From: Promethearchaeia archaeon
GTDB taxonomy: Archaea; Asgardarchaeota; Lokiarchaeia; Sigyniarchaeales; SOKP01
Direction: 5' to 3'
Length of the DNA: 64,000 nt
Assembly (NCBI GenBank): GCA_029856045.1
Contig: JAHQWG010000043.1
Span: 1-64,000 of the forward strand
Position numbers and translations under genes: made by a program. Of this stretch, positions 5,206 through 63,620 are shown in pieces. The notes beneath the pieces are model-generated. The model made no database searches and was not told the origin of the DNA. It was given only the letters and a program-made list of their open reading frames with translations. Within the stretch, counting starts at the first letter, position 1. Each line of letters starts with the position of its first letter.

Positions 5206-6063
5206 ATGATATTTATGAAAGAATTTAAAACAATTAAAATTGAAGAAAGAAACGATGGAATCTCAATCATCACATTAAACAGACCTGAAAGGTTAAATGC
5301 ACTAAATTTTGAAATGATGGAAGAACTCTATGATTACATAACTCTTTTAGAAAATAATTTTAAAATACGTGTCGTTATCTTAACCGGTGAAGGGCGTGCA
5401 TTCTCAGCTGGACTTGATTTAAAAGATAGTAGAGTCGTTATTATGAAGAAAGTTCCCGAAGAATTCCAGAGATTTAAACACCTGCTGGCAAAAGATAAAA
5501 CTAAGAGAATGATAATTGGACAAAAAATTATGACCGATATATTAATTAAGCTTAGAAAAATTCCACAACCCATAATAGCGGCAGTTAAAGGAGCTGCTCA
5601 TGGTGCAGCTTTTGGACTTGCACTTGCTTCTGACATTCGAATAGCAGGAGAAAGTGCTTATTTTTGTAATGCATTCATAAAAATAGGCGTTTCAGGTGCA
5701 GATTGTGGGAGTTCATATTGGCTCCCGCGGCTGATCGGTTATTCAAAAGCTGCAGAAATTATTTATACTGGAAGAAATGTTGAAGCAAAAGAAGCTGATC
5801 GGATAGGTCTTGTCTCGAAAGTAGTTCCTGATAGTAAAATTATTGAGGAATCAATAAAAATGGCAAAAGAAATATTTAATAAAAGTCCTATGGGAATACG
5901 ATTTACAAAGGACGCATTAAATATGAATATTGATGCACCATCTTTTGAGTCAGCAATAAAACTGGAAAATAGAACTCAAACACTTTTACTGAATACTAAC
6001 GACGCTATGGAAGGAATGTTTTCTTTTCTGGAAAGAAGAGACCCAAAATATGATGAATGGTAA
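5206..6063 (+). CDS. enoyl-CoA hydratase/isomerase (crotonase) family protein
   Basis: ITLNRPERLNAL, GRAFSAGLDL, PIIAAVKGAAHG, LALASDIRIA. Confidence 0.93.
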   Translation: MIFMKEFKTIKIEERNDGISIITLNRPERLNALNFEMMEELYDYITLLENNFKIRVVILTGEGRAFSAGLDLKDSRVVIMKKVPEEFQRFKHLLAKDKTKRMIIGQKIMTDILIKLRKIPQPIIAAVKGAAHGAAFGLALASDIRIAGESAYFCNAFIKIGVSGADCGSSYWLPRLIGYSKAAEIIYTGRNVEAKEADRIGLVSKVVPDSKIIEESIKMAKEIFNKSPMGIRFTKDALNMNIDAPSFESAIKLENRTQTLLLNTNDAMEGMFSFLERRDPKYDEW

Positions 6064-6192
6064 ATTCTTGACTTTTAAAATCTCTTATTACTTCAAAAAT
6101 ATATTCAATGAGCTAATTTAGATTCTATTAATCTAAAAATATTTAAATTAATAGAAGAACGGATGACTAAATTACATAAGTGATGTTATATT

Positions 6193-6828
6193 ATGAAGGT
6201 TGAGTTATTATCAATTACTTCCAATCCTGAAAAATTAATAGAAATTGCAGGACGTACATCTCATTTATCCTTCAATAGACAAGGAAAAAAATCTGAGAAA
6301 AATTTTATTAAAATGCTTATTAAAAGAGGGCATACTTCTGTATTAGAACATGCTTATGCTACTTTTAACATTTCTGGTGTATCGAGAGTATTAACTCATC
6401 AATTAGTTAGGCATAGATTGTGTTCATTTACTCAACAATCACAAAGATATGTATCTGAGCTTAATTTTAAATACATTGAACCGGATTCTATAAAAAAAAA
6501 TTCAAAAGCCCATTCTCTTTTTATTAAATTTATGGAAGAGGCAAGAAGAGTTTATTCAGAATTAAAAAATCTAGAAATAAGAAATGAAGATGCAAGATTT
6601 ATGTTACCTAATGCTATTGAAAGCCAAATTGTAGTTTCTGCAAATTTTAGAGAATGGCGTAATATAATAGAACTTCGTGGCAATATAGGTGCACAATGGG
6701 AAATAAGAAAATTAGTAATTAAGATTTTAAAACAATTAAAAAAAAATGCTCCTACTGCTTTTGAAGATTTTGAAATTGATCAAGAAAAGTCAACTATAAG
6801 AAAAATCAAAAATAATTTCCAAAATTAA
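6193..6828 (+). CDS. thyX: FAD-dependent thymidylate synthase
   Basis: GHTSVLEH, ThyX motif RHRLCSFTQQSQRY, EDARFMLP, AQWEIR. Confidence 0.97.
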   Translation: MKVELLSITSNPEKLIEIAGRTSHLSFNRQGKKSEKNFIKMLIKRGHTSVLEHAYATFNISGVSRVLTHQLVRHRLCSFTQQSQRYVSELNFKYIEPDSIKKNSKAHSLFIKFMEEARRVYSELKNLEIRNEDARFMLPNAIESQIVVSANFREWRNIIELRGNIGAQWEIRKLVIKILKQLKKNAPTAFEDFEIDQEKSTIRKIKNNFQN

Positions 6829-49179: not shown

Positions 49180-49626
49180 CTAAATGTTGTTTAATGGTCC
49201 TAATTTCTTAATTTGATTTGTAAAAGTAGTTACTAATTCAGCAAATTTTTTCCCTTCACTTGCGGATATCCATTCAAGCCGAAATCTATCCTTTAATCCC
49301 AAATATTTTAAGATTTTCATTAACCGTTCAAATCTATCTTTTGTAAATTCATTCCCGCTAATATAGTGACAATCTCCTATATGACACCCAGTAACTAACA
49401 CACCATCTACATTATCCTTAAAAGATTTCAGAATAAAAGCTGGTTCAACTCGACCAGAACACATTACTCGAATTATTCTAATAGAGGCAGGATACTGAAA
49501 ACGAGATACTCCAGCCAAATCAGCTCCAGCATAGCTACACCAATTGCAGCAAAAACATACAATATTAGGTTTAAATTCCCTATCTTTTTTAACTTGTTTT
49601 TTATCTGATTTTTCTACGATTTTCAT
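49180..49626 (-). CDS. mvhD: hydrogenase iron-sulfur subunit MvhD (Cys form)
   Basis: [38 protein letters not shown]. Confidence 0.95.
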
Positions 49627-49645
49627 ATTTTTTCATTTATTCTCA

Positions 49646-52600
49646 TTAATTTTTTAAATAAGCCTTAATCATCGCATTTATTTGTTTAAAACTAAAATGT
49701 GAAATAAATATGGCCGAATTAGGGCATTGAACACCACAGGTACCACATCCTTTACATAACGCAGAATTAATATTGGATTTTTTTAAACAAAGTGTATAAT
49801 CTTCAAATGTTTTTTCAACCTCAATTAATTCTATTGCGTTATATGGACAAACGTCAGCACATTTCCCGCAGCCGATGCAATAATCTTCAATTACCTCAGC
49901 AACAAGACCAGAAGTTTTCATTTCTTTAGCACTTAAAATCCTGATAGCTCTTCCAGCTGCACCATTTGCTTGAGCTATTGATTCTTGAATATTCTTAGGC
50001 CAATGAGCGCAACCACATAAAAAAACTCCATCTGTTGCAAAATCAATAGGTCTTAGTTTAACATGAGCTTCTAGAAAAAAACCACTTTGATCTTGCGGAA
50101 CTTTCAGCATTTTTGATAATTCTTTAAAATTTTCAGGTGCAATCATAGGTGTAGCTAAAATTATAAGATCGCCATAAAATTCTACTTCTCCTTTTAAATT
50201 GTGTTCGAATAACGTAATTTTATAATTAAATTTTCCATTTTTAGTTTTTGAAATTATAGGAAGTTTATCCAATGAATATCGTAAGAATAAAGCGTTTTTT
50301 CTTGAATCTCTATAAAATTCTTCATTTCCTTTTTTGGACATTTGAAGATCTCGATAAATTAAAATTAATGCCAAATCAGGTTTTAATTTCTTTAAGATAT
50401 TAATATTCTTTAATGCATTTGTACAACATATATTGGAACAATATGTTATACCCTCTTTTTGTCTGGAATTCACACATAAAATAAATGTAATACTTTTAAT
50501 ATTATCTAGCCATTCTATATTTTCTTTCCTTAATTTTTGCTCTAATTCAAGTTGTGTAATAACATTTTTTTCTTTTTTATAATTGTATATTGTTTCCGGT
50601 ATCAACTCATTCGCTCCAGTTGCAACAATTATTATTCCAACTTTTATATTATTTACTTTATTTCCTTTAGTGGTTATTATAACATCATAATTTCCAATAT
50701 ATCCCCTAATTTCCGTGATATTTGAATTCAAATAAATATTAATGTTTGAATGTGATTTTACTTTATTTACAAAAGGTTCTAAAAATTCTGAGGCTTTTTG
50801 ATATCCTGGGAAAATTTGATATAAATTATTTAAATTTCCACCAAGTTTAGATTCCTTTTCTACAAGATGGGTTGTAAACCCTTGTATTGCAATATTTAAT
50901 GTGGCTATTAAACCAGAAATGCCACCTCCGATTATTAATGCCTCTGGAGTAATTGATAGTTTTGATTCTTTTTGTGGTTTTAATAATCTCGATTTTGCAA
51001 CAGCCATTTCTATGAGGTCTTTGGCTTTCTTAGTTCCATCCACTTTTTGTTCCATATGTACCCAAGAACATTGATCTCGAATATTAACCATTTCAAAAAG
51101 ATATTTATTCAAACCCGCTTCTTCACATGTTTCTTGAAATAATTTTTCATGGGTTCTAGGCGTACAGGACGCAACTATAAATCTATTTAAATCATACTCA
51201 GCAATTAATTCCTTAATTCTAGTTTGGGAATCACTAGAACATGAATATAAATTATCTACTGCAACAGTCACATTAGGTAATGTTTTGATATATTCTAAAA
51301 CCTGGGGAACATCTACATATTTTCCAATATTTATTCCACAATGGCAAATCATAACACCTATGCAAGGTTCATCTTCTAAATTTATCTTTTTTTCAGGTAC
51401 AGATACTACCTTTTCTTTTAATAGAGTATTTCTCACTAGATATAGTAATGTTGAAACCTTATTTGCTACTCCACTTGCATCAGCAACTGTTTCAGGGATA
51501 TCTAATGGTCCTTGACAAAAACCACATAGAAAAATTCCTTCTTGTTCAGATGATAATTTATCATATAATGTCTTTTCTTTAAAAAACTTATATTTATCAA
51601 CGTTTATTCCTAATATTTTGGCAACCTTCTCAGAATCCTCAGATGGTACTAATGGTGTTGCTAAAACTACTAAATTTGCCCTTAAATCATGAAATTTCCC
51701 ATCATCGAGATCTTCATATTTTATAATTAAATCTTTAGTCTTAGGGTCTTCTACTATTTTGCTAATTTTTGAATTAAAATATTTAACCCCATACTCATCT
51801 TGTGCTCTTTGAGTATATTCATAAAAATTTTTCCCATATGCCCTCAAATCATGCCTAAAAATATAACATTCTGAAGAATTCGAATGTTCTTTAGTAATTA
51901 TTGCTTCTTTTGCTGTATACATACAACAGACACTAGAACAATAAGGAATTCCAATATGAAAATCTCTAGAACCAGCACATTGTATAAAAGCAATTTTATG
52001 GGGTTCTTTCTCATCTGATAATCTTAAAACGTGCCCCTCGAATGGACCAGAAGCACATAAAATCCTTTCATACTCTAAAGAGGTAATAACATTTTCATAT
52101 TTATAACCCCAATTATCTGGAAGTTTAGAAGCTAACATATCAAAACCAATAGCAACTATAATTGCCCCAACTTCTATTTGGACTTCTTCTGGTTTCTGCT
52201 CAAAATTAATCGCTTGGGCTTCACAGATTCTTTCACAAACTCTACATACCCCTTTATTCAAAAATAAGCACATATCTGAGTCTATTAAATAAACTGGAGG
52301 TACAGCTTGTGGAAAGGGGATATAAATAGATTTTCTTCTCCCCAAATTCATATCAAAAATATTTGGAGCCTCAATCTTAGGACATTTCGAGGCACAATCT
52401 CCACAACCCTTACATTTATCCTCATCCACATATCTGGGTTTTTTTAAAATTTTTATAAAAAAATGACCTGCATGACCTGATACTTCAATGACTTCTGAAT
52501 AAGTCATTAATTTAATATTTGGATTTCTAAAAACCTCAACCATTTTTGGAGCAAGAATACATAAAGAACAATCATTAGTAGGAAATGTTTTGTCTAATTG

Positions 52601-52771
52601 AGCCATACGTCCTCCAATTGAAGGAGTCTTTTCTACTAGAAATACTTTAAATCCCATTTCAGTTAAATCTAAAGAGGCTTGAATTCCTGCAATACCACCA
52701 CCAATTACTAAGGCTGCTCCGATTAAATCATCGGTTTGACTTTTTTGTGATGAGTTTTTACTTTTACTCAT
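49646..52771 (-). CDS. hdrA: heterodisulfide reductase subunit A, long two-module Cys form
   Basis: Two GGGIxG FAD motifs, DKTFPTNDCSLC, CSSVCC, internal CHCG/CTPRTHE module, and ferredoxin CxxCxxCxxxC motifs. Confidence 0.93.
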   Translation of the reverse strand: MSKSKNSSQKSQTDDLIGAALVIGGGIAGIQASLDLTEMGFKVFLVEKTPSIGGRMAQLDKTFPTNDCSLCILAPKMVEVFRNPNIKLMTYSEVIEVSGHAGHFFIKILKKPRYVDEDKCKGCGDCASKCPKIEAPNIFDMNLGRRKSIYIPFPQAVPPVYLIDSDMCLFLNKGVCRVCERICEAQAINFEQKPEEVQIEVGAIIVAIGFDMLASKLPDNWGYKYENVITSLEYERILCASGPFEGHVLRLSDEKEPHKIAFIQCAGSRDFHIGIPYCSSVCCMYTAKEAIITKEHSNSSECYIFRHDLRAYGKNFYEYTQRAQDEYGVKYFNSKISKIVEDPKTKDLIIKYEDLDDGKFHDLRANLVVLATPLVPSEDSEKVAKILGINVDKYKFFKEKTLYDKLSSEQEGIFLCGFCQGPLDIPETVADASGVANKVSTLLYLVRNTLLKEKVVSVPEKKINLEDEPCIGVMICHCGINIGKYVDVPQVLEYIKTLPNVTVAVDNLYSCSSDSQTRIKELIAEYDLNRFIVASCTPRTHEKLFQETCEEAGLNKYLFEMVNIRDQCSWVHMEQKVDGTKKAKDLIEMAVAKSRLLKPQKESKLSITPEALIIGGGISGLIATLNIAIQGFTTHLVEKESKLGGNLNNLYQIFPGYQKASEFLEPFVNKVKSHSNINIYLNSNITEIRGYIGNYDVIITTKGNKVNNIKVGIIIVATGANELIPETIYNYKKEKNVITQLELEQKLRKENIEWLDNIKSITFILCVNSRQKEGITYCSNICCTNALKNINILKKLKPDLALILIYRDLQMSKKGNEEFYRDSRKNALFLRYSLDKLPIISKTKNGKFNYKITLFEHNLKGEVEFYGDLIILATPMIAPENFKELSKMLKVPQDQSGFFLEAHVKLRPIDFATDGVFLCGCAHWPKNIQESIAQANGAAGRAIRILSAKEMKTSGLVAEVIEDYCIGCGKCADVCPYNAIELIEVEKTFEDYTLCLKKSNINSALCKGCGTCGVQCPNSAIFISHFSFKQINAMIKAYLKN

Positions 52772-53958
52772 TTTTTAGATACCTCCTTATTTTGTTGTGA
52801 GGGTATAACTTCAATAACGTTTTCCAAGAGATTTGATAAATCTATAACATTAATATCTTGGACAGTTTCTGTATCATTTTGAAGGCATCTAAAGTGAATT
52901 TCACATTTTGGACAAGTAGTGACTAAATTATCAGCAACATCTTTAGCTTCCAACATTCTATGATATCGAAGTGCTTTTGCTTTATCAGAACAATTTAGCC
53001 AACAACTTACTCCGCAACATAAAGAATTGGATTTATTGTGAACCATTTCATTATATACATAACCTACTTTTTCCAATTCTTTAAAAATATATCTTATTTT
53101 TTCATATATATTAAAAGATTTTGGTAAAAATCTACTTAATCTACATGGATCATGATAAGTTAATTTGAGTATTTTTGTGTTTTTCTTTTCCTTTTTAAAT
53201 TTAATTTTATTTTCCTTCAATTTCTCATAAAGATATTCAACAAGGTGTTTAACCTTAACATTAAAATTCTCAAACATCGAAGGATAATCAATTTTAAGAG
53301 TCCTATACCCTTCTGCACAAGAAGTTATTATTAAAGAAGCTCCACTTCTTTCAAAAGATTTAATATTATGGATTGCTAATTTTTTAAAAGCTTCGATTTT
53401 ACCTTGCCACAATAAATCATGACCACAACATTTTTCATCTTTCAACAAAACTATTGGTTCATTTTCAATTTTGCATAATATTTTTAAAGTATCTACAGCA
53501 TTATTCATTGACTCATCGAATTCATAACTAAAAAGGGGAGCACATCCTACAAAATATAAGATATTTCCCTTTTCTGATACCTCACACCCAGAAGGAACCC
53601 ACTCAAAAGTCTTTTCCGGAGTAATATTTTCTTTACTCATAATTTCCGAAAGAAGTGTATAGAATCCCTTATGAGCAATTTTAGGCATAATTCCGGCATC
53701 TAACATTTTATTTCTTGCATCACGTACTATTTCAGCAAAATTAACTTCATATGGACATTTTTCAAGGCAAGAATTGCAAGTTAAGCAATCCCAAAGCATT
53801 CCACTTTCAACAATTCGATCTTCAAAACCTTCAATGATCAGTTGTATTATCCTACTAGGAGTGTATTTTTGGATTCTTCCCATTTGGCAAATGCCACTAC
53901 ACATAGCACATTGATAGCAATTGTTAAGATATTCTCTTAATTTTCCTTTTATAATCAT
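52768..53958 (-). CDS. HdrD/GlpC-like Fe-S protein (2x[4Fe-4S] + two CCG domains)
   Basis: CYQCAMCSGIC, CLTCNSCLEKCP, KCCG, YHDPC, LCCG, CPKC. Confidence 0.9.
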   Translation of the reverse strand: MIIKGKLREYLNNCYQCAMCSGICQMGRIQKYTPSRIIQLIIEGFEDRIVESGMLWDCLTCNSCLEKCPYEVNFAEIVRDARNKMLDAGIMPKIAHKGFYTLLSEIMSKENITPEKTFEWVPSGCEVSEKGNILYFVGCAPLFSYEFDESMNNAVDTLKILCKIENEPIVLLKDEKCCGHDLLWQGKIEAFKKLAIHNIKSFERSGASLIITSCAEGYRTLKIDYPSMFENFNVKVKHLVEYLYEKLKENKIKFKKEKKNTKILKLTYHDPCRLSRFLPKSFNIYEKIRYIFKELEKVGYVYNEMVHNKSNSLCCGVSCWLNCSDKAKALRYHRMLEAKDVADNLVTTCPKCEIHFRCLQNDTETVQDINVIDLSNLLENVIEVIPSQQNKEVSKK

Positions 53959-53983
53959 AGAATTGTCAGAAATCTGAGTAATT

Positions 53984-55096
53984 TTAAAATTTAACTCCTA
54001 AGTTTTTTTGCGATAAATTATATCTATCTTCTTTATATTTTGAAAACTGAATTAATTTTTCTAACATTTTATCTCTTTTTCCTTCTAAATCCTCTAAAAC
54101 TTTTATATATCCCTCATTTATAGCGGATTTAACAATATTTGTTCCAAGTTTGGTTCTAGGTATAGTTGTTGTATATTTTTCAGGTGATGATAATCCACCA
54201 AATGAAATATCTGCATAAATATTAGTAAAATCATTACATGCATTACAAGCGGAACGAATATAATCTGATAATTCATTAAACGATATATGCTGAATAACTT
54301 CACTTCCTTTTAATTTTATTAACATATCTTCCTTAATATTTAATTTCTCAATCTCATCAATTTTTAAATTAAATTGAGTTTCAAATTTCTCTTTTTTATC
54401 TTTACCCATTGTAAAATTTCCATAACAAAATAATCCAAGAAGATATTTTATATTTTGAGAGGGGGTAACCCCCATTTCTTGCATGCATCTTATCGTATAA
54501 ATTTGGCAAGGCGTTCCTATAACAGCTAACTTTTTAAATTTATATCTATTTAATGCCATAATTGTAGGACTATAAGTACTAAAATTGGCAATTTCTGTTA
54601 CTTGTGAAGAAATATCAAAATGAGAACCTGCAGCTAAAATTAAATCATCTTTAGATTTTGCAATCATTGAATCTCTCGAAAATGGTCCCAACTTTTTTGA
54701 AACGATTGCTCCATCAATTAAATTATGTTCTAATAAATACAATAATATAGCAGATACTACTCCACCATCAGTTCCATTTTTTAAGAGATCTTTATCTAAC
54801 GCTTGAAATGAATATATCTTTTCATAATTGCCAAGTGGTTTGATATAATTATATTGATTATTTAAATCATTTTCTAATACTTTAGTTTGTGGACAAATAT
54901 GATAACATATTCCGCACTCTAAGCATTCATTTTCATTTATATATTGTGGTGGCAAATCTGGTTTAATAAAATCAATAATCTTATAATCAGCAGAACTACA
55001 AAAACTTACACACCCACCACATAATTGACAAATGCCTTTATCATGAACTTCTTTAATTAAATCTTTAAAATTTTTTATTGGTTTATCTTGACTCAT
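53984..55096 (-). CDS. F420 hydrogenase/dehydrogenase beta subunit (FrhB/FdhB family) with ferredoxin domain
   Basis: DGGVVSA, IGTPCQ, LGLFC, CNACND, ADISFG. Confidence 0.9.
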   Translation of the reverse strand: MSQDKPIKNFKDLIKEVHDKGICQLCGGCVSFCSSADYKIIDFIKPDLPPQYINENECLECGICYHICPQTKVLENDLNNQYNYIKPLGNYEKIYSFQALDKDLLKNGTDGGVVSAILLYLLEHNLIDGAIVSKKLGPFSRDSMIAKSKDDLILAAGSHFDISSQVTEIANFSTYSPTIMALNRYKFKKLAVIGTPCQIYTIRCMQEMGVTPSQNIKYLLGLFCYGNFTMGKDKKEKFETQFNLKIDEIEKLNIKEDMLIKLKGSEVIQHISFNELSDYIRSACNACNDFTNIYADISFGGLSSPEKYTTTIPRTKLGTNIVKSAINEGYIKVLEDLEGKRDKMLEKLIQFSKYKEDRYNLSQKNLGVKF

Positions 55097-55113
55097 TTTT
55101 TAATAAAATTTTA

Positions 55114-56595
55114 TTATTTTTTTACATCGAATTCAATTTTTTTACATTTTGAATTTTTAATTCCTGAAATTTTCTTAACCAAACCGAATCCAGGTTTTAC
55201 TTCAGCTAAATCCTTAACTTCTACTAAATTGCCATTTATTAATTTATTAAATAAATCATTCCCAACTTTTGTTCTTGTAATAACTGAAGACCAGCCTGCA
55301 CTAGAACCTATTGAACCTACTGAAATATCTGCAAATTCGGACGTTAAATCACTACAATAATGGCATACATCTCTTGCTAAGGAAGTTACTTCTTTTAATG
55401 GAACTTTGGCTTCTTCTCCATTTTTATCTTTGATAATAAATTTTCCTCCACTAATGTCCATTTTTAAAATGTTCTCTAATTTCTTATTAAAAATTTCAGT
55501 GCTTATTTTGATAACATTATCATAGCTGAATGATTCCATGCAGAATAAACCAATAGTATATTTAATATTATTAAAAAAAGATGTTCCAATTGGATAAATA
55601 CTTCCTTTTTTGAGTGCTAACATCATACATGGAGTTCCAACGACTGCAATTTTATCAAATTTTTGTGCTTCATTCAAAATTGTTAAACTTGGAGAATTAG
55701 CATATTTTGTACCAGCGGTTTTATAAAGATCATCAACATTCTCAATTATAATAGGTTTTGGCCTCCAAATATCTTCAGAATGGGTTACTGCTATCGCAGC
55801 ATCAATTTCTTTTTCTTTTAGTAAATAATATAACAATGTTGTTATTATACCACCATCTTGGCATACTTCTTTAATTTCATCACTTTTTGTACTTGCAGTA
55901 TATGCATTTATATAATAATTACTTGCGGCACCATCCTTCAAATTAGGATTTAATTTATTTAAAACTGTAAAAATATGCTCAGATGGAAATGACCTCGGGC
56001 AAACAGAAAAACAAAGTCCGCATTTAATGCAAGTCTCAGAATCAATTTTAAGATCATCTGCAGTTACTGTTATTGAGCCAACTGGGCATATTGATGAACA
56101 ATAACCACAATTACAACAAAAATTATTCTCAAATACTAAAGACACTGGCTCAAAATAATTTTCTCGAAAAGAATTATCAAGGGATTTGGCTTGATATCGA
56201 ATAATTTCAATCTTAATTTCTTTATCTATCAAATTTCCCTCTTTATTTTTTACTTTTTTAATTTCTGTCTTTATTTCAATTAATTTTTCAACATAACCTT
56301 GTTGGGTTAAATATTCAACTGTTTGTACTAATTTTTTCTTATCATATTCCACTTTCTCCACTATTTCTTCAAGAGTAAGCAGAGGAAGCCCTATTAATTT
56401 TTTTAATATTAAATTTCTTTCTGTCTCAGCATCGAGAAGTGAATCTAAAATAAAATTAAAATCTTCCTCACTAAATCTTCCAAATTTTAAAATATCATCT
56501 TTTCCTTCATATAATGCACGAATTTGAAAATTACTTATAGCGTTATATGTAGATTCCATTAGATTTTTTAGATCAGTATTTTCTATAAGATTCAC
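55114..56595 (-). CDS. FrhB-family protein with N-terminal helical/wHTH extension and ferredoxin domain
   Basis: QDGGIIT, GTKY, VGTPC, IGLFCME, CHYCSD, ADISVG. The first ~150 aa carry a wHTH pattern. Confidence 0.9.
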   Translation of the reverse strand: MNLIENTDLKNLMESTYNAISNFQIRALYEGKDDILKFGRFSEEDFNFILDSLLDAETERNLILKKLIGLPLLTLEEIVEKVEYDKKKLVQTVEYLTQQGYVEKLIEIKTEIKKVKNKEGNLIDKEIKIEIIRYQAKSLDNSFRENYFEPVSLVFENNFCCNCGYCSSICPVGSITVTADDLKIDSETCIKCGLCFSVCPRSFPSEHIFTVLNKLNPNLKDGAASNYYINAYTASTKSDEIKEVCQDGGIITTLLYYLLKEKEIDAAIAVTHSEDIWRPKPIIIENVDDLYKTAGTKYANSPSLTILNEAQKFDKIAVVGTPCMMLALKKGSIYPIGTSFFNNIKYTIGLFCMESFSYDNVIKISTEIFNKKLENILKMDISGGKFIIKDKNGEEAKVPLKEVTSLARDVCHYCSDLTSEFADISVGSIGSSAGWSSVITRTKVGNDLFNKLINGNLVEVKDLAEVKPGFGLVKKISGIKNSKCKKIEFDVKK

Positions 56596-56619
56596 CTTCC
56601 TAATTAAATTTTTTTTAAG

Positions 56620-56698
56620 CCCCCATATCCCTTGCAGGGATGTCCCAATAAAATTTCTTAATTTTAAGCTTTAATTTTAAAGATCATTCAAATGGGGG
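56620..56698 (-). ncRNA. eukaryote-type SECIS element (type II-like, with apical mini-stem)
   Basis: Helix I CCCCCAU:AUGGGGG. AUGA (56687-56684) and GA (56644-56643) core. 11-nt helix II UCUUUAAAAUU:AAUUUUAUUGG. Unpaired AAA and mini-stem CUUA:UAAG. Lies directly 3' of two UGA-containing genes. Confidence 0.85.
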
Positions 56699-57155
56699 TT
56701 TTAGTTTTTAATTTTTTATCTGCATCTTTTATTTCTGCCTTAAAAACTGCTTGATCTGTTTTTAATGGGTTCAATCCCAATTTTTCTATTTTATTTACCA
56801 TATCTTCGACCGATTTTACAAATTTTACAGCTTCAGCTCCAGTGCAGTTATACATGTTTACTCGGTCTCCTCCCAAACCACGCCTATCTAGAATTCGCCT
56901 AACAAATTCGACATGTTTTGCAGCGATAAAGTTTCCAGTTTTAAATTCACATTGATTTTCTAGTCAGCCTACAACCATTACTCCATCGGCACCATTATTA
57001 ATTGCATAGATTAGGTGTTTTATATCAACTCTACCTGTACAGCGCAGACGAATAATTTTTACATTGGGACTATATTTCAATCTTGAAACACCAGCTAAAT
57101 CTGCAGCACTATAACCTCATTTATTACAAGCAAATGTAATGATATTCATTTTCAT
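56688..57155 (-). CDS. vhuD: selenocysteine-containing MvhD/VhuD (U13, U64), 155 aa
   Basis: Continuous frame from ATG 57155 reading FACNK-U-GYSAADLAG, LRCTGRV, VVG-U-LENQCEF. TGA at 57117-57119 and 56964-56966 align with Cys of the mvhD paralogue. GGTGA SD at 57161-57165. Confidence 0.92.
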
Positions 57156-57178
57156 ATATCTCACCTGAATTTTTCGGT

Positions 57179-59122
57179 TTATGCATTTTCCTCCTTTACT
57201 AATGCTAAGACTTGATTAAATATTTGCTCATCTGTATAATATCTAATTTGTATTGCTTGAGTTGGACAACAAGTTGCACAGATTCCACATCCGTCACAAT
57301 TGATCTCATCGACCTCAGCAATTTTTCCTTCAGGTACAATAATAGCATTCTTTGGACAATTTTTTTCGCAGCGACAACAAGAAATACAATTTTCTTCATC
57401 AACAATCGCACATATTAATTCAAGCTCCGCTTCTCCCTTGGATGTTAATTCTGCAACCTTACTTGCGGTTGCTCTCGCTTGAGAAACCGAGTATGATATA
57501 TTTTTTGGTCCTTGCGCAAAACCACAAATATAAATCCCTAGATATTTTGTTTCTTGAGGACTTAAGCCAAAATGATGTTCAGTCAGGTATCCATTTGTAT
57601 CATAATCAATTCCAAGAACATCTGCTATTTGTTTCGTTCCTTTAGATGGTAATACTGCAGTTGATAAAACTACTAAGTCTGCATCAATTTTTATTATCTC
57701 ATCTGTTAATGAAGAATATACTCTTACCTTGAGATTTTTGGTTTCAGAATCCTCTATTAGTTCTGGAACTTTACCTCGAATAAAGTCAATACCTTTATCA
57801 CGAGTTCTCATATAGTATTCTTCAAAGTTCTTTTCAGATGCTCTTATATCAATGTAGCAGATGGTTATATGGCAATCAGGGATTTCTTCTTTAAGTAATT
57901 TAGCATTTTTTAAAGCGATCATGCAACACACACCAGAACAATACGCTCTTTCTGTATCTCTCGAGCCAACACATTGAATAAATAATATTTCTTTAGGTGT
58001 TTTTCCATCTGATGGTCTTTTTACATGGCCCATTGTTGGACCATTTGGTGCTAATATCCTTTCAAGCTGGATTTCGTTTATAACATTTTGATATTCTCCA
58101 TATCCATATTCTATAGGATTATATAAGTCCCAACCCGTTGCAACTATTATTGTACCCACTTCAATTTCGACATATTCAGGTTCTTGACTCAAATCAATTG
58201 CATGTGGCTCGCAAGCATCTACACAGGCATATCATTCAACGCAAGATTCTTTTTCAAGATCATAAACAAAAGGAATAGCTTGCCCAAAACATATATCGAT
58301 ACATTTTCTTGAACCTAAATTTTCTTGCCAATAATTTGGTATGTAAATTGGACATACTGGCGTACAATCTCCACAACCATTACACAAATCTTCTATAACA
58401 TATCTAGGTTTTTTCTTTATCGTAACTTCATAATTTCCAACATATCCTTCAACTTTATCAACTTCACTATAACTAATAATTTCAATATTTTCATTTCGAT
58501 TAGCTTCAAGCATTTTTGGACCAAGAATTCATATAGAACAATCATCAGTTGGAAATGTTCGATCTAACTGAGCCATTCTGCCCCCAATTGTAGTTTTACT
58601 CTCTATTAAATACACCCTTATTCCTTGATTTGCCAGATCTAATGCCGCATTTAATCCAGCGATTCCTCCACCAACTACCAAAGTAGCTTTTTTTATAGGA
58701 ATAATTTTTGTCGGTACTATTTCCAATCTTTTAGCCCTTTCATAACCTGCTCTGCTTAAAATCTTTGCTTTATTGGTTGCTGAAACTTCGTCTTCAGTAA
58801 TCCAAGAACATTGTTCTCTAATATTTACCATTTGAAAATAAAATTTACTAAGTCCTGCCCGTTCTAAAGACTCTCTATAAATCGGTTCATGAGTTCTAGG
58901 AGTTCAAGCTGCCGCTACAACCCGATTTATCTTTTTTTCTTTGATATCATCCATTATTAATTTCTGCCCTTGTTCAGTACATAAAAAACTAAAGATGCGA
59001 CTTGTTTCAATATTATCAAATTGTTTCATATACTCTGCAACTTCAGAACAATTAACTTTCGCAGAAATATTCAAGCCTCATTGACATGCATAATATCCAA
59101 TGCGTAAAATTTCTTTACTCAA
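57179..59122 (-). CDS. hdrA: selenocysteine-containing heterodisulfide reductase subunit A (U15, U73, U198, U297), 647 aa
   Basis: Single frame from TTG 59122 to TAA 57179, with in-frame TGA at 59078-80 (CQ-U-G), 58904-06 (AA-U-TPRTHE), 58529-31 (DCSI-U-ILGPK) and 58232-34 (CVE-U-YACVDAC). Joins the three ORF-track fragments. Confidence 0.92.
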
Positions 59123-59566
59123 TTTTTTTTCACATCAACTCGTTTAATAATTTTTATTTTAAAATTTATACTATTAGATTAAAAAAATTCAAAATGCTCC
59201 AAATTAAAAAAATTTTTTATAATAATTTTCAGATTCAATAATTTTATATTTTGAAATTACCTTATTTAATAATTTTTATCTTAATGATTATATAAATTAT
59301 TCGATACTGACAGAAATGGAAAATAAAATAATTAATTTTTACGAGAAACCTTAAGAAATTATTTTGAATTATACAATTTCGGTTATTATCCCCGATTTCC
59401 TAAATCTTTATATAAAATCATTTCCGAAATTGATAACTTCATTAATAATAATTTCGAAGACTAATAAAAAATCAAAAAAGAATTTTTAAATCCAAAAATA
59501 TATTTAAAAAAATGTATTATATTCCTAAATAAATTTAACAAAAAGAACAATACTTACAAAAGATAG

Positions 59567-59779
59567 ACAATAGAACTATTAAGTAATTATTTCAATTCAT
59601 GTAATAGAGCAATTTTTAAAAGAGATGTGGTTAAACATTTGGGAGAAATTGATGATGAAAAAATTCTTAAGTATCTTTTAAAATATGTAGGAGATTATCA
59701 TAGTAAAGTCCGGCTTTTAATGACTAAAATGATAAAAAAAATTGAAGCAAGAATAGATAACAAACTCAATAATCAATAA
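59567..59779 (+). pseudogene. probable HEAT-repeat gene remnant
   Basis: RDVVKHLGEIDDEKILKYLLKYVGDYHSKVRLLMTKMIKKI. The upstream part of the same frame is interrupted by TAG and TAA TAA. Confidence 0.35.
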
Positions 59780-59912
59780 AATATCTTTTTTTTCCTCTGA
59801 TATTTTTCTAAAAAAAATGAATTGTTATTTAATTATAATAATTTTTTTTAAGGATTAAGGTTTTAAATAAGTATTTCTATTCAAATCTCAGTGTAAATAA
59901 AGGTTTTATAGA

Positions 59913-61406
59913 GTGAGTGAAGAAATAAATAAAGTAAAATCTGAATCTAAATATGAACATTCTTTTGAATATATAAGAAAAAAATTAGAAGGAAAAAAAG
60001 ATTCATTTGGAAAATTAGTAAAGGAAGTTATAAGAACAGGTGTTTGTACTCATTGTGGCACTTGTGCAGCGATTTGCAGTGCTCTTGAATGGGATCCAAT
60101 TTTAGAGGAACCAAAATTAATTGGAGTATGTTCTGGGTGTGGAATTTGTTATAATCAATGTCCAAGGACTATTACTAATCCCGAACAACTTGTTGGTCAT
60201 TTTAAAACAGGTTATGTTACAAAAAGTGGAATTCCTGAAGTTATTGGTGGTCAGGACGGAGGAACCGTTACGAGCTTATTATGTTATTTATTTGATGAAA
60301 ATTTAATTGATGGAGCAGTTGTTACTAAAAAAAATCCAAATAAACCATGGGTTCCGTTACCTCAACTTATTAATACAAAAGAAGAAGCTGTTGAAGCTGC
60401 TGGTTCTATTTATAGCCATTCACAAACAGTTGATTCTTTAATTGACGGGATTAGAAATAACATGGGCTCTATCGCATTTGTAGGAACTCCTTGCAACATA
60501 GATGCTGTGTTTAAAATGGAAAGTAGTCCACTTGGAATGTTAAAATATTTTATGAGAGCACATGTTTTTAAAATTGGATTATTTTGTATGGATTCATTTT
60601 CACATGAAGCATTATTACCATTTTTTGAGAAGGAGGGAATTAAATTAGCGGAAATAACAAAAATGGATATCAATAAAGGAAAATTTTATCTTTACAGAGG
60701 AGATACAGAAGTAAAATCCTATAAAATAAGGGAATTAGATAAATTTAAATCATCAAGTTGCAATTTTTGCACAGATTTAACTTCAGAAAATGCTGATATC
60801 TCGGTGGGTTCTGTTGGAAGTGGCCCGAAGAAAAACACAGTTTTAGCACGATCAGGTATAGGAGTAGAAATTATAGAGGATGCTATAAAAAAGGGATATT
60901 TATGTTCTGAACCATTTTCAGTGGAAAATTTAAATTCTGTCTTGTTCTTAGCAAGATTAAAGAAAGTATCTCAATATACAGTTCTTAAAAGGAAGGTTTT
61001 TATAGTTAAAGATATAGATAAAAAAGAACCATTTAAACAATCACCAGAATTGAAAGAGCAAGCTGAGATCGCAACGCCGTTTGGAACAAGAAAAATTTTA
61101 AAGGTTACTCAAAAACTGAATGAAAGTCAAACGGCTACTGCAATTACAATAGAAAATGTTATTGGATATCTTCTTGAAAATTTACAAATTAGGGTTGCTT
61201 TTGTGGAAGAACTATTTGAAAAACGACCGTGGACTACAACAATAAAAGAAATTTTTCCTTTTGAATCTATTCAGATTAATTATCCATTAGAAATTAAAGA
61301 TGGAGAACACGATCTTGGAGAAATAATTATAGATATTTCTGATTCACATAGAAAACTCTTTTTTAAGAAATATTCTCTTAAACCAAAAGAAAAAAAATCA
61401 AAATAA
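59913..61406 (+). CDS. FrhB-family protein with N-terminal ferredoxin and C-terminal Ig-like domain
   Basis: CTHCGTCAAIC, CSGCGICYNQCP, GQDGGTVT, VGTPC, IGLFCM, CNFCTD, ADISVG, plus a ~100-aa extra C-terminal domain. Confidence 0.88.
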   Translation: MSEEINKVKSESKYEHSFEYIRKKLEGKKDSFGKLVKEVIRTGVCTHCGTCAAICSALEWDPILEEPKLIGVCSGCGICYNQCPRTITNPEQLVGHFKTGYVTKSGIPEVIGGQDGGTVTSLLCYLFDENLIDGAVVTKKNPNKPWVPLPQLINTKEEAVEAAGSIYSHSQTVDSLIDGIRNNMGSIAFVGTPCNIDAVFKMESSPLGMLKYFMRAHVFKIGLFCMDSFSHEALLPFFEKEGIKLAEITKMDINKGKFYLYRGDTEVKSYKIRELDKFKSSSCNFCTDLTSENADISVGSVGSGPKKNTVLARSGIGVEIIEDAIKKGYLCSEPFSVENLNSVLFLARLKKVSQYTVLKRKVFIVKDIDKKEPFKQSPELKEQAEIATPFGTRKILKVTQKLNESQTATAITIENVIGYLLENLQIRVAFVEELFEKRPWTTTIKEIFPFESIQINYPLEIKDGEHDLGEIIIDISDSHRKLFFKKYSLKPKEKKSK

Positions 61407-61484
61407 TAGATAAAAAAATTTTTCAACAAAATTTTTATTAAATCAAATTAAAAATTTAAATAAGAATAAACGAGATATAAAAAA

Positions 61485-62396
61485 ATGAAAATTAGTTTAA
61501 TAGGATTATCTGGTTGTGGAAAAACCTCTTTATATTCGGTAATATTCGCGGAAAAAACACCTGAAGAAACAAAGGGATTATCTCCAACGATACTCTATGA
61601 AACAAGAAGGCATCCCTTTTTAGGATTAGAAATATCAATTTTTGATTTTGGAGGTCAAGACCAATACATCAAAGAATATCTTGATAAGCCGAAAATATTC
61701 ATGGGCACGGATGTTCTCGTGCCTGTCGTAGATTTACACGATCCAAATTCTTTTGATAAATCAAAAAAGTATTTTGAAGATGTTTTAAAGTTATATAAAG
61801 ATAATTATCAGAAACCAAAAGTATGTCTATTTTATCATAAATATGATACTGAAGATTATCAAAAGGAACTTTTAGATACAAATATAATTAAAGCTAAAGA
61901 GTTTTTTTCGGACATGTTCAAAGATTATAACCCACAAACTTTCCTAACGAGTATCTATGATCAGCAAAATTTAACAAAGATTTTCAGAGATATATTAATG
62001 GGATCTTATTCAGAATTAAAGGGTCATATAGAAAAAGCGGAAAAGCACTTACAGGAGATAAATGCACGAATTATTATTTCCGATATATCAGGAAATGTTT
62101 TGGTTCATAATGTTCAAGGAGTTTCAAGCGGACTATCATTAAGGGCAGACTTAAGAGACTTTATCAGTTCTTGTAATGTAATTAGAGAGAATGTCTTTTT
62201 ATCTGATTCTGCAGAGTTTAAAGGAAATTCAGAAGAAGGTAAAGAGCTTCAACTATATATCTTTAAATACATATTGGCTGTTTTAATAATGAAATCGGAA
62301 AAGAAATTGGATCCTGAATCGAGTGAAAAGATAAGAGTTCTCCTCGAAGATATGAAATTATTTTCTGATATAATTGTTTCTATCCATTCTGAATAA
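61485..62396 (+). CDS. Rag/Gtr-like small GTPase with C-terminal roadblock-like domain
   Basis: GLSGCGKTSLYSVIF, LSPT (G2), FDFGGQ, Rag-type HKYD (G4), TSIYD (G5), and C-terminal IIISDISGNVLV. Confidence 0.85.
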   Translation: MKISLIGLSGCGKTSLYSVIFAEKTPEETKGLSPTILYETRRHPFLGLEISIFDFGGQDQYIKEYLDKPKIFMGTDVLVPVVDLHDPNSFDKSKKYFEDVLKLYKDNYQKPKVCLFYHKYDTEDYQKELLDTNIIKAKEFFSDMFKDYNPQTFLTSIYDQQNLTKIFRDILMGSYSELKGHIEKAEKHLQEINARIIISDISGNVLVHNVQGVSSGLSLRADLRDFISSCNVIRENVFLSDSAEFKGNSEEGKELQLYIFKYILAVLIMKSEKKLDPESSEKIRVLLEDMKLFSDIIVSIHSE

Positions 62397-62423
62397 TTTT
62401 TTTAGAGCGATCAAACGATAAAA

Positions 62424-63620
62424 ATGAAATTAAGTCTTGTTAATGATGATAATATCATTTTGGGAGATTATCTTAGTGTAATTACTAAAATTTTTTTTGA
62501 AGAGACAACTGATATCTTGTGGGGAGGTATAAAATTAATTTCTAAAAACCCATGTAAAAGAGACTTAATTATAACCAAATCTGAATTATTCAATCAAGGT
62601 ACTTTTGAGCCTGGTGAATATATCAGAAATAGATCACAACTTATTAATCCCAAAGTAGTTCCAACAATTCCAGCAAGAAATATTCACTACTTAGTTAAAA
62701 TGACTTTAAGAATTAAAAGTCCTCTTAATTCTCAAAAAGAAATAGAAATTTTTAAAGAAAATCCCATTAAAATTCTTCCAAAAGGGAATATGTTTCAAAA
62801 TAGAACTCCCACCCCAATTAAATTAATTATGTCAGGGATGAATATTGAAATTTCTAAAGATATTTTTAAACCAGGCGAAACTATTAAGATTGATTATAAA
62901 ACAGATAATTTAACATTATTTCAAATAAGATTAAAACAGAAGACTAATTTAATCTGTATTTGTGAACCTTTTGGTGAACAATGTGGAAGTATTGAGGAAT
63001 TACCTCCAGTGATTGCGGGTGTAGCAAAAACATCCAAAACAGATCAAGGTTTTCTATTGATAAAACTTCCAAATCACGCTGAACCAAGTCATGAATATCT
63101 TTGGGAACCTCAAGAAAAAGATCAGTGGGGAATTAAATTTGGGGATTATTCTAAATGGTTTCTGGAGATAATAGGAAATAGGAAGAGAGAAGTTGGGGGA
63201 GATACAATCTCTTTTGAAATCCCAATTATTGTAATCCCTCAAAAGGAGCAAGAAATAGTCGATAATAGTTTATTTAGAGAAAGAGAAGAGGGTTTAGAAT
63301 TATTTGAACCCCCTCCTGCAATAAAAAAAGGTATGAATATAATTTCTATTGATATTAATAAAGATACTTCTTCAAGTACATTTATTTATAAATTACGAAT
63401 TAAAAATAATCTTAAAGATACTCTTAACGGTGTTACCATAGAAAATTCAGGTATTCAACAAGGTCTATTTGAGACTTATAAACATATGATGGGATTTAAT
63501 ACATGGTTACCAGGAGAAGAAAAATCAATTGAATATAAAACAAGACAAGAAATTGATACCTTAATTTCTACAATCGAAACAAATTCTCAAAAGCAAATTA
63601 GAATTCAAACAATATTATGA
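62424..63620 (+). CDS. arrestin/Vps26-fold protein with C-terminal Ig-like domain
   Basis: FEPGEY..VVPT..NIHYLVKMTL (N lobe) and ISKDIFKPGETIKI..LPNHAEPS..FEIPIIV (C lobe). Confidence 0.6.
   Translation: MKLSLVNDDNIILGDYLSVITKIFFEETTDILWGGIKLISKNPCKRDLIITKSELFNQGTFEPGEYIRNRSQLINPKVVPTIPARNIHYLVKMTLRIKSPLNSQKEIEIFKENPIKILPKGNMFQNRTPTPIKLIMSGMNIEISKDIFKPGETIKIDYKTDNLTLFQIRLKQKTNLICICEPFGEQCGSIEELPPVIAGVAKTSKTDQGFLLIKLPNHAEPSHEYLWEPQEKDQWGIKFGDYSKWFLEIIGNRKREVGGDTISFEIPIIVIPQKEQEIVDNSLFREREEGLELFEPPPAIKKGMNIISIDINKDTSSSTFIYKLRIKNNLKDTLNGVTIENSGIQQGLFETYKHMMGFNTWLPGEEKSIEYKTRQEIDTLISTIETNSQKQIRIQTIL

Follow-up and report, generated by a model that had tools for sequence, protein, structure and literature searches.

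A predicted multi-selenocysteine HdrA gene with a VhuD partner and a divergent SECIS-like element in a Lokiarchaeia genome

Can a reading frame that contains four in-frame TGA codons be an intact gene, and if so, how might these codons be decoded? The question arises from a 64,000-nucleotide (nt) stretch of a Promethearchaeia archaeon (Lokiarchaeia; Sigyniarchaeales; SOKP01), namely positions 1 to 64,000 of contig JAHQWG010000043.1 in assembly GCA_029856045.1, hereafter called the window. An initial annotation, made from the sequence alone, had placed at positions 57179-59122 a hidden gene for HdrA, a subunit of heterodisulfide-reductase-type complexes, with four selenocysteines (Sec, U) in place of cysteine (Cys). 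Its coordinates, its frame of 647 codons with four TGAs and its lack of TAA and TAG codons all held on re-analysis; the strand, which had been left unstated, is the minus strand. Here we show that the four TGAs fall exclusively on invariant Cys columns and that the frame is under purifying constraint, also past the last of them, and we describe a partner gene, vhuD, followed by an element resembling a selenocysteine insertion sequence (SECIS), which together are predicted to explain how the UGAs are read. We refer to the gene as hdrA(Sec).

The reading frame, its TGA codons and the selenocysteine machinery

Translation of the minus strand gave a single frame that starts with TTG and stops with TAA, contains exactly four in-frame TGAs (codons 15, 73, 198 and 297) and is free of frameshifts and of TAA or TAG before the terminal codon. 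The TTG aligns with a Met of the orthologues (KKLSK...RIGYYAC here and KKMEK...RIGYYAC in the orthologues), which supports it as the start. A plus-strand reading of 57179-59122 was ruled out, its translation having stops throughout. The open reading frame (ORF) list of the window holds the gene as separate pieces (57179-58192, 58232-58513, 58529-58831, 58904-59074 and a short 5′ piece); the three fragments that had been assigned to one frame are among them, and the expectation that gene callers would break up such a Sec-HdrA is borne out.

The product belongs to the Pfam families Pyr_redox_2, FAD and Fer4 (4Fe-4S). In a phmmer search against the PDB, residues 7-639 aligned with residues 5-647 of the Methanococcus maripaludis HdrA chain 9sfi_A (E 5e-201), the best match, in which an X (Sec) is aligned with Sec198; the solved HdrA chains 5odc_A, 8rvu_a and 7bkb_A were also matched. 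The four-domain architecture of HdrA is present over its full length, with an N-terminal Fe-S domain, a FAD/thioredoxin-reductase fold, an inserted ferredoxin domain and, at the C terminus, a ferredoxin domain. Moreover, the whole set of cluster-binding Cys is found, comprising four CxxCxxCxxxC motifs, the N-terminal Cys set, the CxxC near 197 and the CC near 399, each position being C or U and invariant across 35 homologues. The usual partners of HdrA are encoded on the same strand, with VhuD directly downstream, a CCG-domain HdrBC-like protein at 52768-53958 and a second MvhD at 49180-49626. Judged by homology, hdrA(Sec) is therefore predicted to encode the flavin-based electron-bifurcating subunit of a heterodisulfide-reductase-type complex in a non-methanogenic Asgard archaeon.

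We examined the TGA codons in an alignment of 35 HdrA genes, with homologues selected by BLASTP, which was extended to 39 genes for the count of Sec columns. All four TGA columns of hdrA(Sec) hold C or U only across these 35-39 homologues, as had been proposed as a check on the gene, and indeed any column that has a TGA in any gene of the 35-gene alignment holds just Cys or Sec. With ~24 invariant Cys columns per 647 positions, simple arithmetic gives a chance of ~2e-6 that four positions drawn at random would each hit one of them. The four matches originally quoted between the TGAs and a Cys-type HdrA of the same operon were all reproduced by BLASTP, the paralogue (1041 aa, 49646-52771, minus strand) having CHCG, ASCTPRTHE, DCSLCI and the ferredoxin-motif Cys opposite the four Sec.

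All four TGAs are kept in four genomes of the genus, including the source genome. Pairwise dN/dS within the genus was 0.11-0.31 for the whole of hdrA(Sec) and 0.13-0.34 for codons 298-646; selection is therefore not relaxed downstream of the last TGA, a circumstance that had been named as one that would speak against the gene. Orthologues at ~68% identity retain 3-5 TGAs in full-length frames and have three of the four Sec sites in common with hdrA(Sec). Within the window, TGA is the ordinary stop of 5 of the 43 long ORFs, which argues against a reassigned genetic code.

The source genome, a metagenome-assembled genome (MAG) of 55 contigs and 3.34 Mb that is 100% complete by marker genes, was also found to contain the machinery for Sec, as the initial annotation had asked of it. 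The tRNA-Sec (61 bits, with a UCA anticodon), SepSecS (483 bits), EFSec/SelB (268 bits) and SelD all scored over their cut-offs, SelD carrying its own in-frame TGA (Sec-SelD), and a PSTK-like gene was present, to which we return below. Much of this machinery is clustered within 6 kb of contig C1, with SepSecS at 885-2183, tRNA-Sec at 2268-2356 and EFSec/SelB at 5689-6582. The SelD gene and its single in-frame TGA (C44:100694-101497) lie on the same contig as the window, ~37 kb past the window end. A SECIS model of the canonical core (described below) found nothing at E <= 1 at the SelD locus (L010), which fits the published statement that SelD has a different form of SECIS.

Taken together, these data make it very probable that hdrA(Sec) is a real and intact selenoprotein gene whose four UGAs are read as Sec, within an arrangement of HdrA, VhuD and SECIS.

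The VhuD partner, the SECIS-like element and rival explanations

Neither the partner gene nor a SECIS had featured in the initial account of the locus. The ATG of vhuD begins 23 nt past the hdrA(Sec) stop (Table 1). Its product matches the solved M. maripaludis VhuD, 9sfi_K (E 3e-37), and both of its in-frame TGAs lie opposite an X (Sec) in that chain and opposite Cys in MvhD. Among the multi-Sec HdrA genes of this genome and its relatives that have enough downstream sequence, 22/22 are followed by a two-Sec VhuD, whilst three HdrA genes with a single Sec site are followed by a one-Sec VhuD. In this genome and its relatives, the hdrA stop is TAA or TAG in every case. A two-Sec VhuD with a SECIS downstream of it would explain how the UGAs of hdrA(Sec) are decoded.

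Table 1. Positions, in window coordinates, of the predicted features of the hdrA(Sec)-vhuD locus
Feature	Position	Strand	Description
hdrA(Sec) CDS	57179..59122	-	Supported by translation, Pfam and full-length match to solved HdrA chains
Sec15 TGA, CQUG	59078..59080	-	N-terminal Fe-S domain; column U in 28 and C in 5 of 33 sequences
Sec73 TGA, AAAUTPRTHE	58904..58906	-	N-terminal domain; invariant Cys/Sec column, U in 19 and C in 15
Sec198 TGA, DCSIUI	58529..58531	-	Canonical HdrA Sec site, equivalent to Cys197/Sec197 of methanogen HdrA
Sec297 TGA, CVEUYACVDAC	58232..58234	-	Second position of second CxxCxxCxxxC motif, inserted ferredoxin domain
vhuD/mvhD(Sec)	56688..57155	-	155 codons, ATG start, two in-frame TGAs, stop TGA
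vhuD Sec13 TGA	57117-57119	-	Aligned with X (Sec) of solved VhuD
vhuD Sec64 TGA	56964-56966	-	Aligned with X (Sec) of solved VhuD
SECIS-like three-way element	56620..56698	-	Sequence, folds and position homologous to the lokiSECIS of relatives
Lower helix	56692-56698 with 56620-56626	-	CCCCCAU pairs with AUGGGGG
AUGA core	56684-56687	-	Abuts vhuD stop UGA (56688-56690)
GA of core	56643-56644	-	Distal to AU-rich extended helix with A-rich apical region
Third arm, GCA loop	56627-56641	-	AUCCCU-GCA-AGGGAU

In 27 relatives and paralogues, vhuD is followed by a canonical lokiSECIS, the SECIS form of these archaea, consisting of AUGA, one unpaired base, an 8-bp stem, an 11-nt A-rich loop and GA or AA. 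When these elements were aligned on the AUGA core, the stem was 98% paired, a figure somewhat favoured by the choice of the elements partly for their foldability; all eight of its pairs (8/8) had compensatory changes, and in slid registers pairing fell to 37-50%. A covariance model of the core (R1), built from the 27 relatives, scored 42-46 bits on the other three HdrA-VhuD pairs of the source genome.

The element of the window differs from this form. Set against its orthologues, it still bears traces of the canonical form, but with the old stem eroded and the distance from AUGA to GA ~10 nt longer, so that the fixed stem of 8-9 bp and loop of 11 nt are not present. In the orthologue alignment, the ~10 extra nt provide a new 3′ strand and a new GA. 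Folded in isolation, the fragment adopts a type-II-like shape, with AUGA, a 9-bp helix containing a U.U/U.U internal loop, AAAG, a 4-bp mini-stem and GA. The orthologues, too, have the lower helix as well as the third arm, whose loop is of the GCA/GCGA type, the paired fraction being 84% with modest covariation. With the filters switched off, a search of the window for other canonical lokiSECIS elements, which took in the 5′ untranslated region and positions further downstream, gave no match above 16.6 bits, a level no better than chance, and an Rfam scan of the whole window returned no family at the gathering threshold and nothing SECIS-like. We conclude that the homologous place holds a SECIS in the form of a remodelled variant, its function being a prediction from position, sequence and fold.

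Several observations weigh against this account. On the element of the window (56639-56690) the R1 model gave 13.8 bits (E ~1), only the fifth-best match in the window. The proposed helix is weak (-2.2 kcal/mol, with two U.U mismatches), the 105-nt SECIS region is no stabler than its shuffles (z = -0.53), and the four genomes of the genus are too alike for a covariation signal in the SECIS. Moreover, the PSTK-like gene (147 bits, E 6e-43) falls below the NCBIfam curated cut-off, and the assignment of the N-terminal Cys as cluster ligands draws on homology and literature rather than on coordinates.

An atypical SECIS and a PSTK candidate under its cut-off would also suit a scheme in which the UGAs are read through without Sec, either by near-cognate insertion of Cys or Trp or by Cys carried on tRNA-Sec when selenium is scarce, so that a Cys-type HdrA would be made at least sometimes; the free alternation of Sec and Cys at these columns, by which Cys is clearly tolerated, points the same way. 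We consider this very improbable, since the Sec pathway is complete, including a tRNA-Sec(UCA) and a SelD that itself contains Sec, and UGA is a true stop elsewhere in the window. Moreover, the same columns are experimentally Sec in the solved HdrA and VhuD of M. maripaludis, and the genus retains TGA even though TGT and TGC are one mutation away. The degraded core stem and the chance-level score under the canonical model can also be read as one part of a wider decay, in which hdrA(Sec) would be a pseudogene with four nonsense mutations whose function is covered by other copies, and the source genome is indeed redundant in this respect, with at least ten HdrA-like genes. However, decay would hardly confine its nonsense codons to invariant Cys columns whilst leaving no frameshift, TAA or TAG; nor does it sit well with the four TGAs and the frame being kept in four genomes at the low dN/dS given above, even past the last TGA, with three of four sites being common to orthologues at 68% identity, or with a downstream vhuD that is intact in the same way. 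A decaying gene is thus very improbable. Lastly, the TGAs could in principle have arisen as errors of sequencing or assembly in an AT-rich metagenome bin, given the 55 contigs of the MAG and a window GC content of 28%. This is barely credible, as three independently assembled MAGs from other studies (CSMAG_2237, 2R3_4 and 6H3_1) have TGA at all four codons and three of the sites recur in dozens of other genomes.

Sec297 and the spread of selenocysteine sites in HdrA

The reading of hdrA(Sec) as a selenoprotein gene places it among relatives that are themselves rich in Sec. The initial annotation had regarded four Sec as unusually selenium-rich, taking the DCxxU site as typical; this does not stand. 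Mariotti et al. (2016, Mol Biol Evol, PMC4989117) reported up to four Sec in Lokiarchaeota HdrA at five possible positions, the canonical one always included, and amongst the genes studied here orthologues with five Sec exist. Several TGAs are the rule in the 40 relatives searched, nearly all of which have HdrA genes with 1-5 TGAs, and the source genome has four Sec-type HdrA paralogues with 4, 3, 3 and 3 TGAs. The common Sec sites in our alignment are Sec15, Sec73, Sec198 and position 48, which is Cys here and Sec in some relatives.

The interest that had been attached to a Sec in a ferredoxin-type motif is, by contrast, justified. The ferredoxin motif around Sec297 is a plain CxxUxxCxxxC in which no spare Cys adjoins the Sec, and column 297 holds U just in the four genomes of the genus and in one other gene (L076), with C in all other sequences examined. 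When the inserted ferredoxin domain was searched for in 400 genomes of the phylum, the only genes with a TGA among the best 150 matches were the four orthologues of the genus and three others. L076 (G175:C433) is an orthologue from another genus with Sec at 297 and five Sec in total; L078 (G219:C43), also with five Sec, has one at 300; and L077 (G006:C124) has one at 247, both of these positions being in inserted ferredoxin motifs. A paralogue, L079 (G020:C12), has five Sec in total, among them one in the last motif, at 615, and two at 399 and 400, where the FAD-domain cluster has its CC pair. Across the 39 genes we counted ten Sec columns in HdrA, each of which is otherwise an invariant Cys.

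A quick maximum-likelihood tree nests L076 in the sister clade of the genus, which by parsimony means two changes at 297. Parsimony therefore favours two separate origins of U297, one in the genus and one in L076, although a single clade is not rejected by the approximately unbiased test (p = 0.108). None of the Sec motifs of this protein, and no text on Sec positions, was found in the supplements of the 2024 Asgard selenoproteome survey. The Sec297 site is rare and, judged from the main-text descriptions of sites in the 2016 and 2024 studies, appears to be undescribed.

In other respects the locus closely resembles the pairs described by Mariotti et al. In Lokiarchaeota, VhuD always lies directly downstream of HdrA, which never ends in UGA, and one lokiSECIS behind VhuD serves up to six UGAs over ~2 kb (PMC4989117). 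As in those pairs, we find an HdrA of ~650 aa with several Sec at conserved Cys including the canonical site near 200, a two-Sec VhuD immediately downstream on the same strand, a UAA/UAG stop for HdrA and, directly behind VhuD, one eukaryote-like AUGA...GA element that would serve six UGAs over ~2 kb. Two differences stand out. Of the Sec positions known in 2016, four replace Cys outside the motifs, and the remaining one belongs to the last Fe-S motif, where a spare Cys comes after it (PMC4989117); the fourth Sec here (297), by contrast, belongs to the second Fe-S motif and has no spare Cys beside it. Moreover, unlike the lokiSECIS described there, the element of this pair is ~10 nt longer between AUGA and GA, with a degraded stem, an apical mini-stem and a chance-level score. 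The 2024 survey found HdrA and FrhD/VhuD to be the most abundant selenoprotein sequences in Asgard archaea and to share SECIS elements (PMC11227280). The new details of the locus are therefore the Sec297 site and the divergent SECIS, both of them incremental, since multi-Sec HdrA, the tandem VhuD and one SECIS for six UGAs have been in print since 2016. Overall, the initial interpretation is partly supported, being right in substance whilst it overstated how unusual the protein is and missed the VhuD-SECIS context.

The Sec-HdrA of Methanococcus and Methanocaldococcus (PDB 9sfi; PMC13518236) is likewise of four domains, can be aligned end to end with the present protein and has Sec197 at CxxU, and its VhuD partner has two Sec at the same two columns. 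However, it has a single Sec, whereas the present protein has three more, of which the N-terminal domain holds two and the inserted ferredoxin domain the third; its SECIS is of the methanogen type, whereas that of hdrA(Sec) is eukaryote-like; and the present host is a non-methanogenic Asgard archaeon in which the gene is clustered with FrhB-like and CCG-domain HdrBC-like genes. The Cys-type HdrA of MvhADG-HdrABC (PDB 5odc; Wagner et al. 2017 as summarised in PMC9012536) shares the Fe-S motif Cys and the FAD fold, its Cys197 being equivalent to Sec198, but has Cys throughout and no recoding.

Operon context, proposed mechanism and implications

The genes around hdrA(Sec) are those of a larger electron-transfer cluster. 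Its same-strand neighbours comprise two FrhB-like genes, a CCG-domain HdrBC-like gene, a fused double HdrA and a Cys-MvhD; a Gtr1/RagA GTPase gene is also nearby, and in a scan of the genes at 49180-63620 we noted no hydrogenase. The two FrhB/FdhB-like genes (53984-56595, minus strand) come after the SECIS-like element, the first starting with GTG at 56595, 25 nt past the lower helix. No terminator-like site was found between the element and this next gene, and the SECIS may thus be intercistronic in a longer hdrA-vhuD-frhB-frhB-hdrBC-hdrAA-mvhD transcript. A sigma-70 promoter scan was set aside as not meaningful for an archaeon, and the absence of a terminator alone was used. On the other side, a 790-nt AT-rich intergenic gap (59123-59912) separates hdrA(Sec) from a divergent FrhB-like gene (59913-61406, plus strand); it contains ORFs of only ~50 aa and no Rfam match.

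In the 1041-aa Cys-type protein two HdrA units are fused, and their losses are complementary. Its first half has the FAD domain, with DCSLC (the equivalent of Cys197), and the inserted ferredoxin domain, and is without the N-terminal Fe-S domain. It is similar to the fused HdrA3/4 of anaerobic methanotrophic archaea (ANME) and Moorella (PMC9012536), but with the halves in the opposite order.

Structural work on HdrA suggests what the Sec residues might do. In HdrA, Cys197 of one protomer is a ligand to the N-terminal [4Fe-4S] cluster of the other; this cluster supplies the inserted ferredoxin domain and, after it, ferredoxin (PMC9012536). In the M. maripaludis enzyme, studied by cryo-electron microscopy, density at Sec197 and a Cys was interpreted as that of a selenylsulfide relay linking FAD with cluster A3 (PMC13518236). 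By analogy, hdrA(Sec) and its two-Sec vhuD would be co-transcribed, and the single eukaryote-like SECIS behind vhuD would most likely direct tRNA-Sec and EFSec to six UGAs over ~2.1 kb. In the product, Sec15 and Sec73 would take Cys positions of the N-terminal Fe-S domain and Sec198 the canonical CxxU site, and by the standard rule for ferredoxin motifs Sec297 would take the place of a Cys that ligates a [4Fe-4S] cluster of the inserted ferredoxin domain. Homology and the literature would place all four Sec on the low-potential route that starts at FAD, passes the N-terminal cluster and then the inserted ferredoxin domain, and ends at ferredoxin. A change from a Cys codon to UGA alters only the third base, and a SECIS of this type acts at a distance, so that Cys and Sec could be exchanged freely along the mRNA; such exchange would produce the patchy, lineage-specific pattern of Sec sites.

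We tentatively propose, as a possibility that we hold to be somewhat short of probable, that Sec297 is a true selenolate ligand of a ferredoxin-type [4Fe-4S] cluster whose motif offers no spare Cys, that it forms with Sec15, Sec73 and Sec198, which would surround the N-terminal cluster, a selenium-tuned low-potential branch of the bifurcating enzyme, that the SECIS allows evolution to scan Sec through the Cys ligands of HdrA, and that the remodelled, type-II-like SECIS decodes the pair. If this is so, the ten Sec columns, including 247, 297, 300, 615 and 399/400, would constitute a natural map of the Fe-S ligands that accept, or benefit from, selenium. The locus would add a natural example of Sec at an unambiguous ferredoxin-type [4Fe-4S] ligand position, as predicted from the motif, and Sec at ten or more cluster-ligand Cys columns of HdrA would let bioinorganic chemists ask how ligation by selenium tunes low-potential clusters. 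Moreover, a SECIS variant that escapes the canonical model matters for selenoprotein searches that are based on SECIS elements. Standard annotation splits this central enzyme of Asgard energy metabolism into four or five pieces, and metabolic reconstruction of these relatives of eukaryotes therefore needs gene calling that takes Sec into account.

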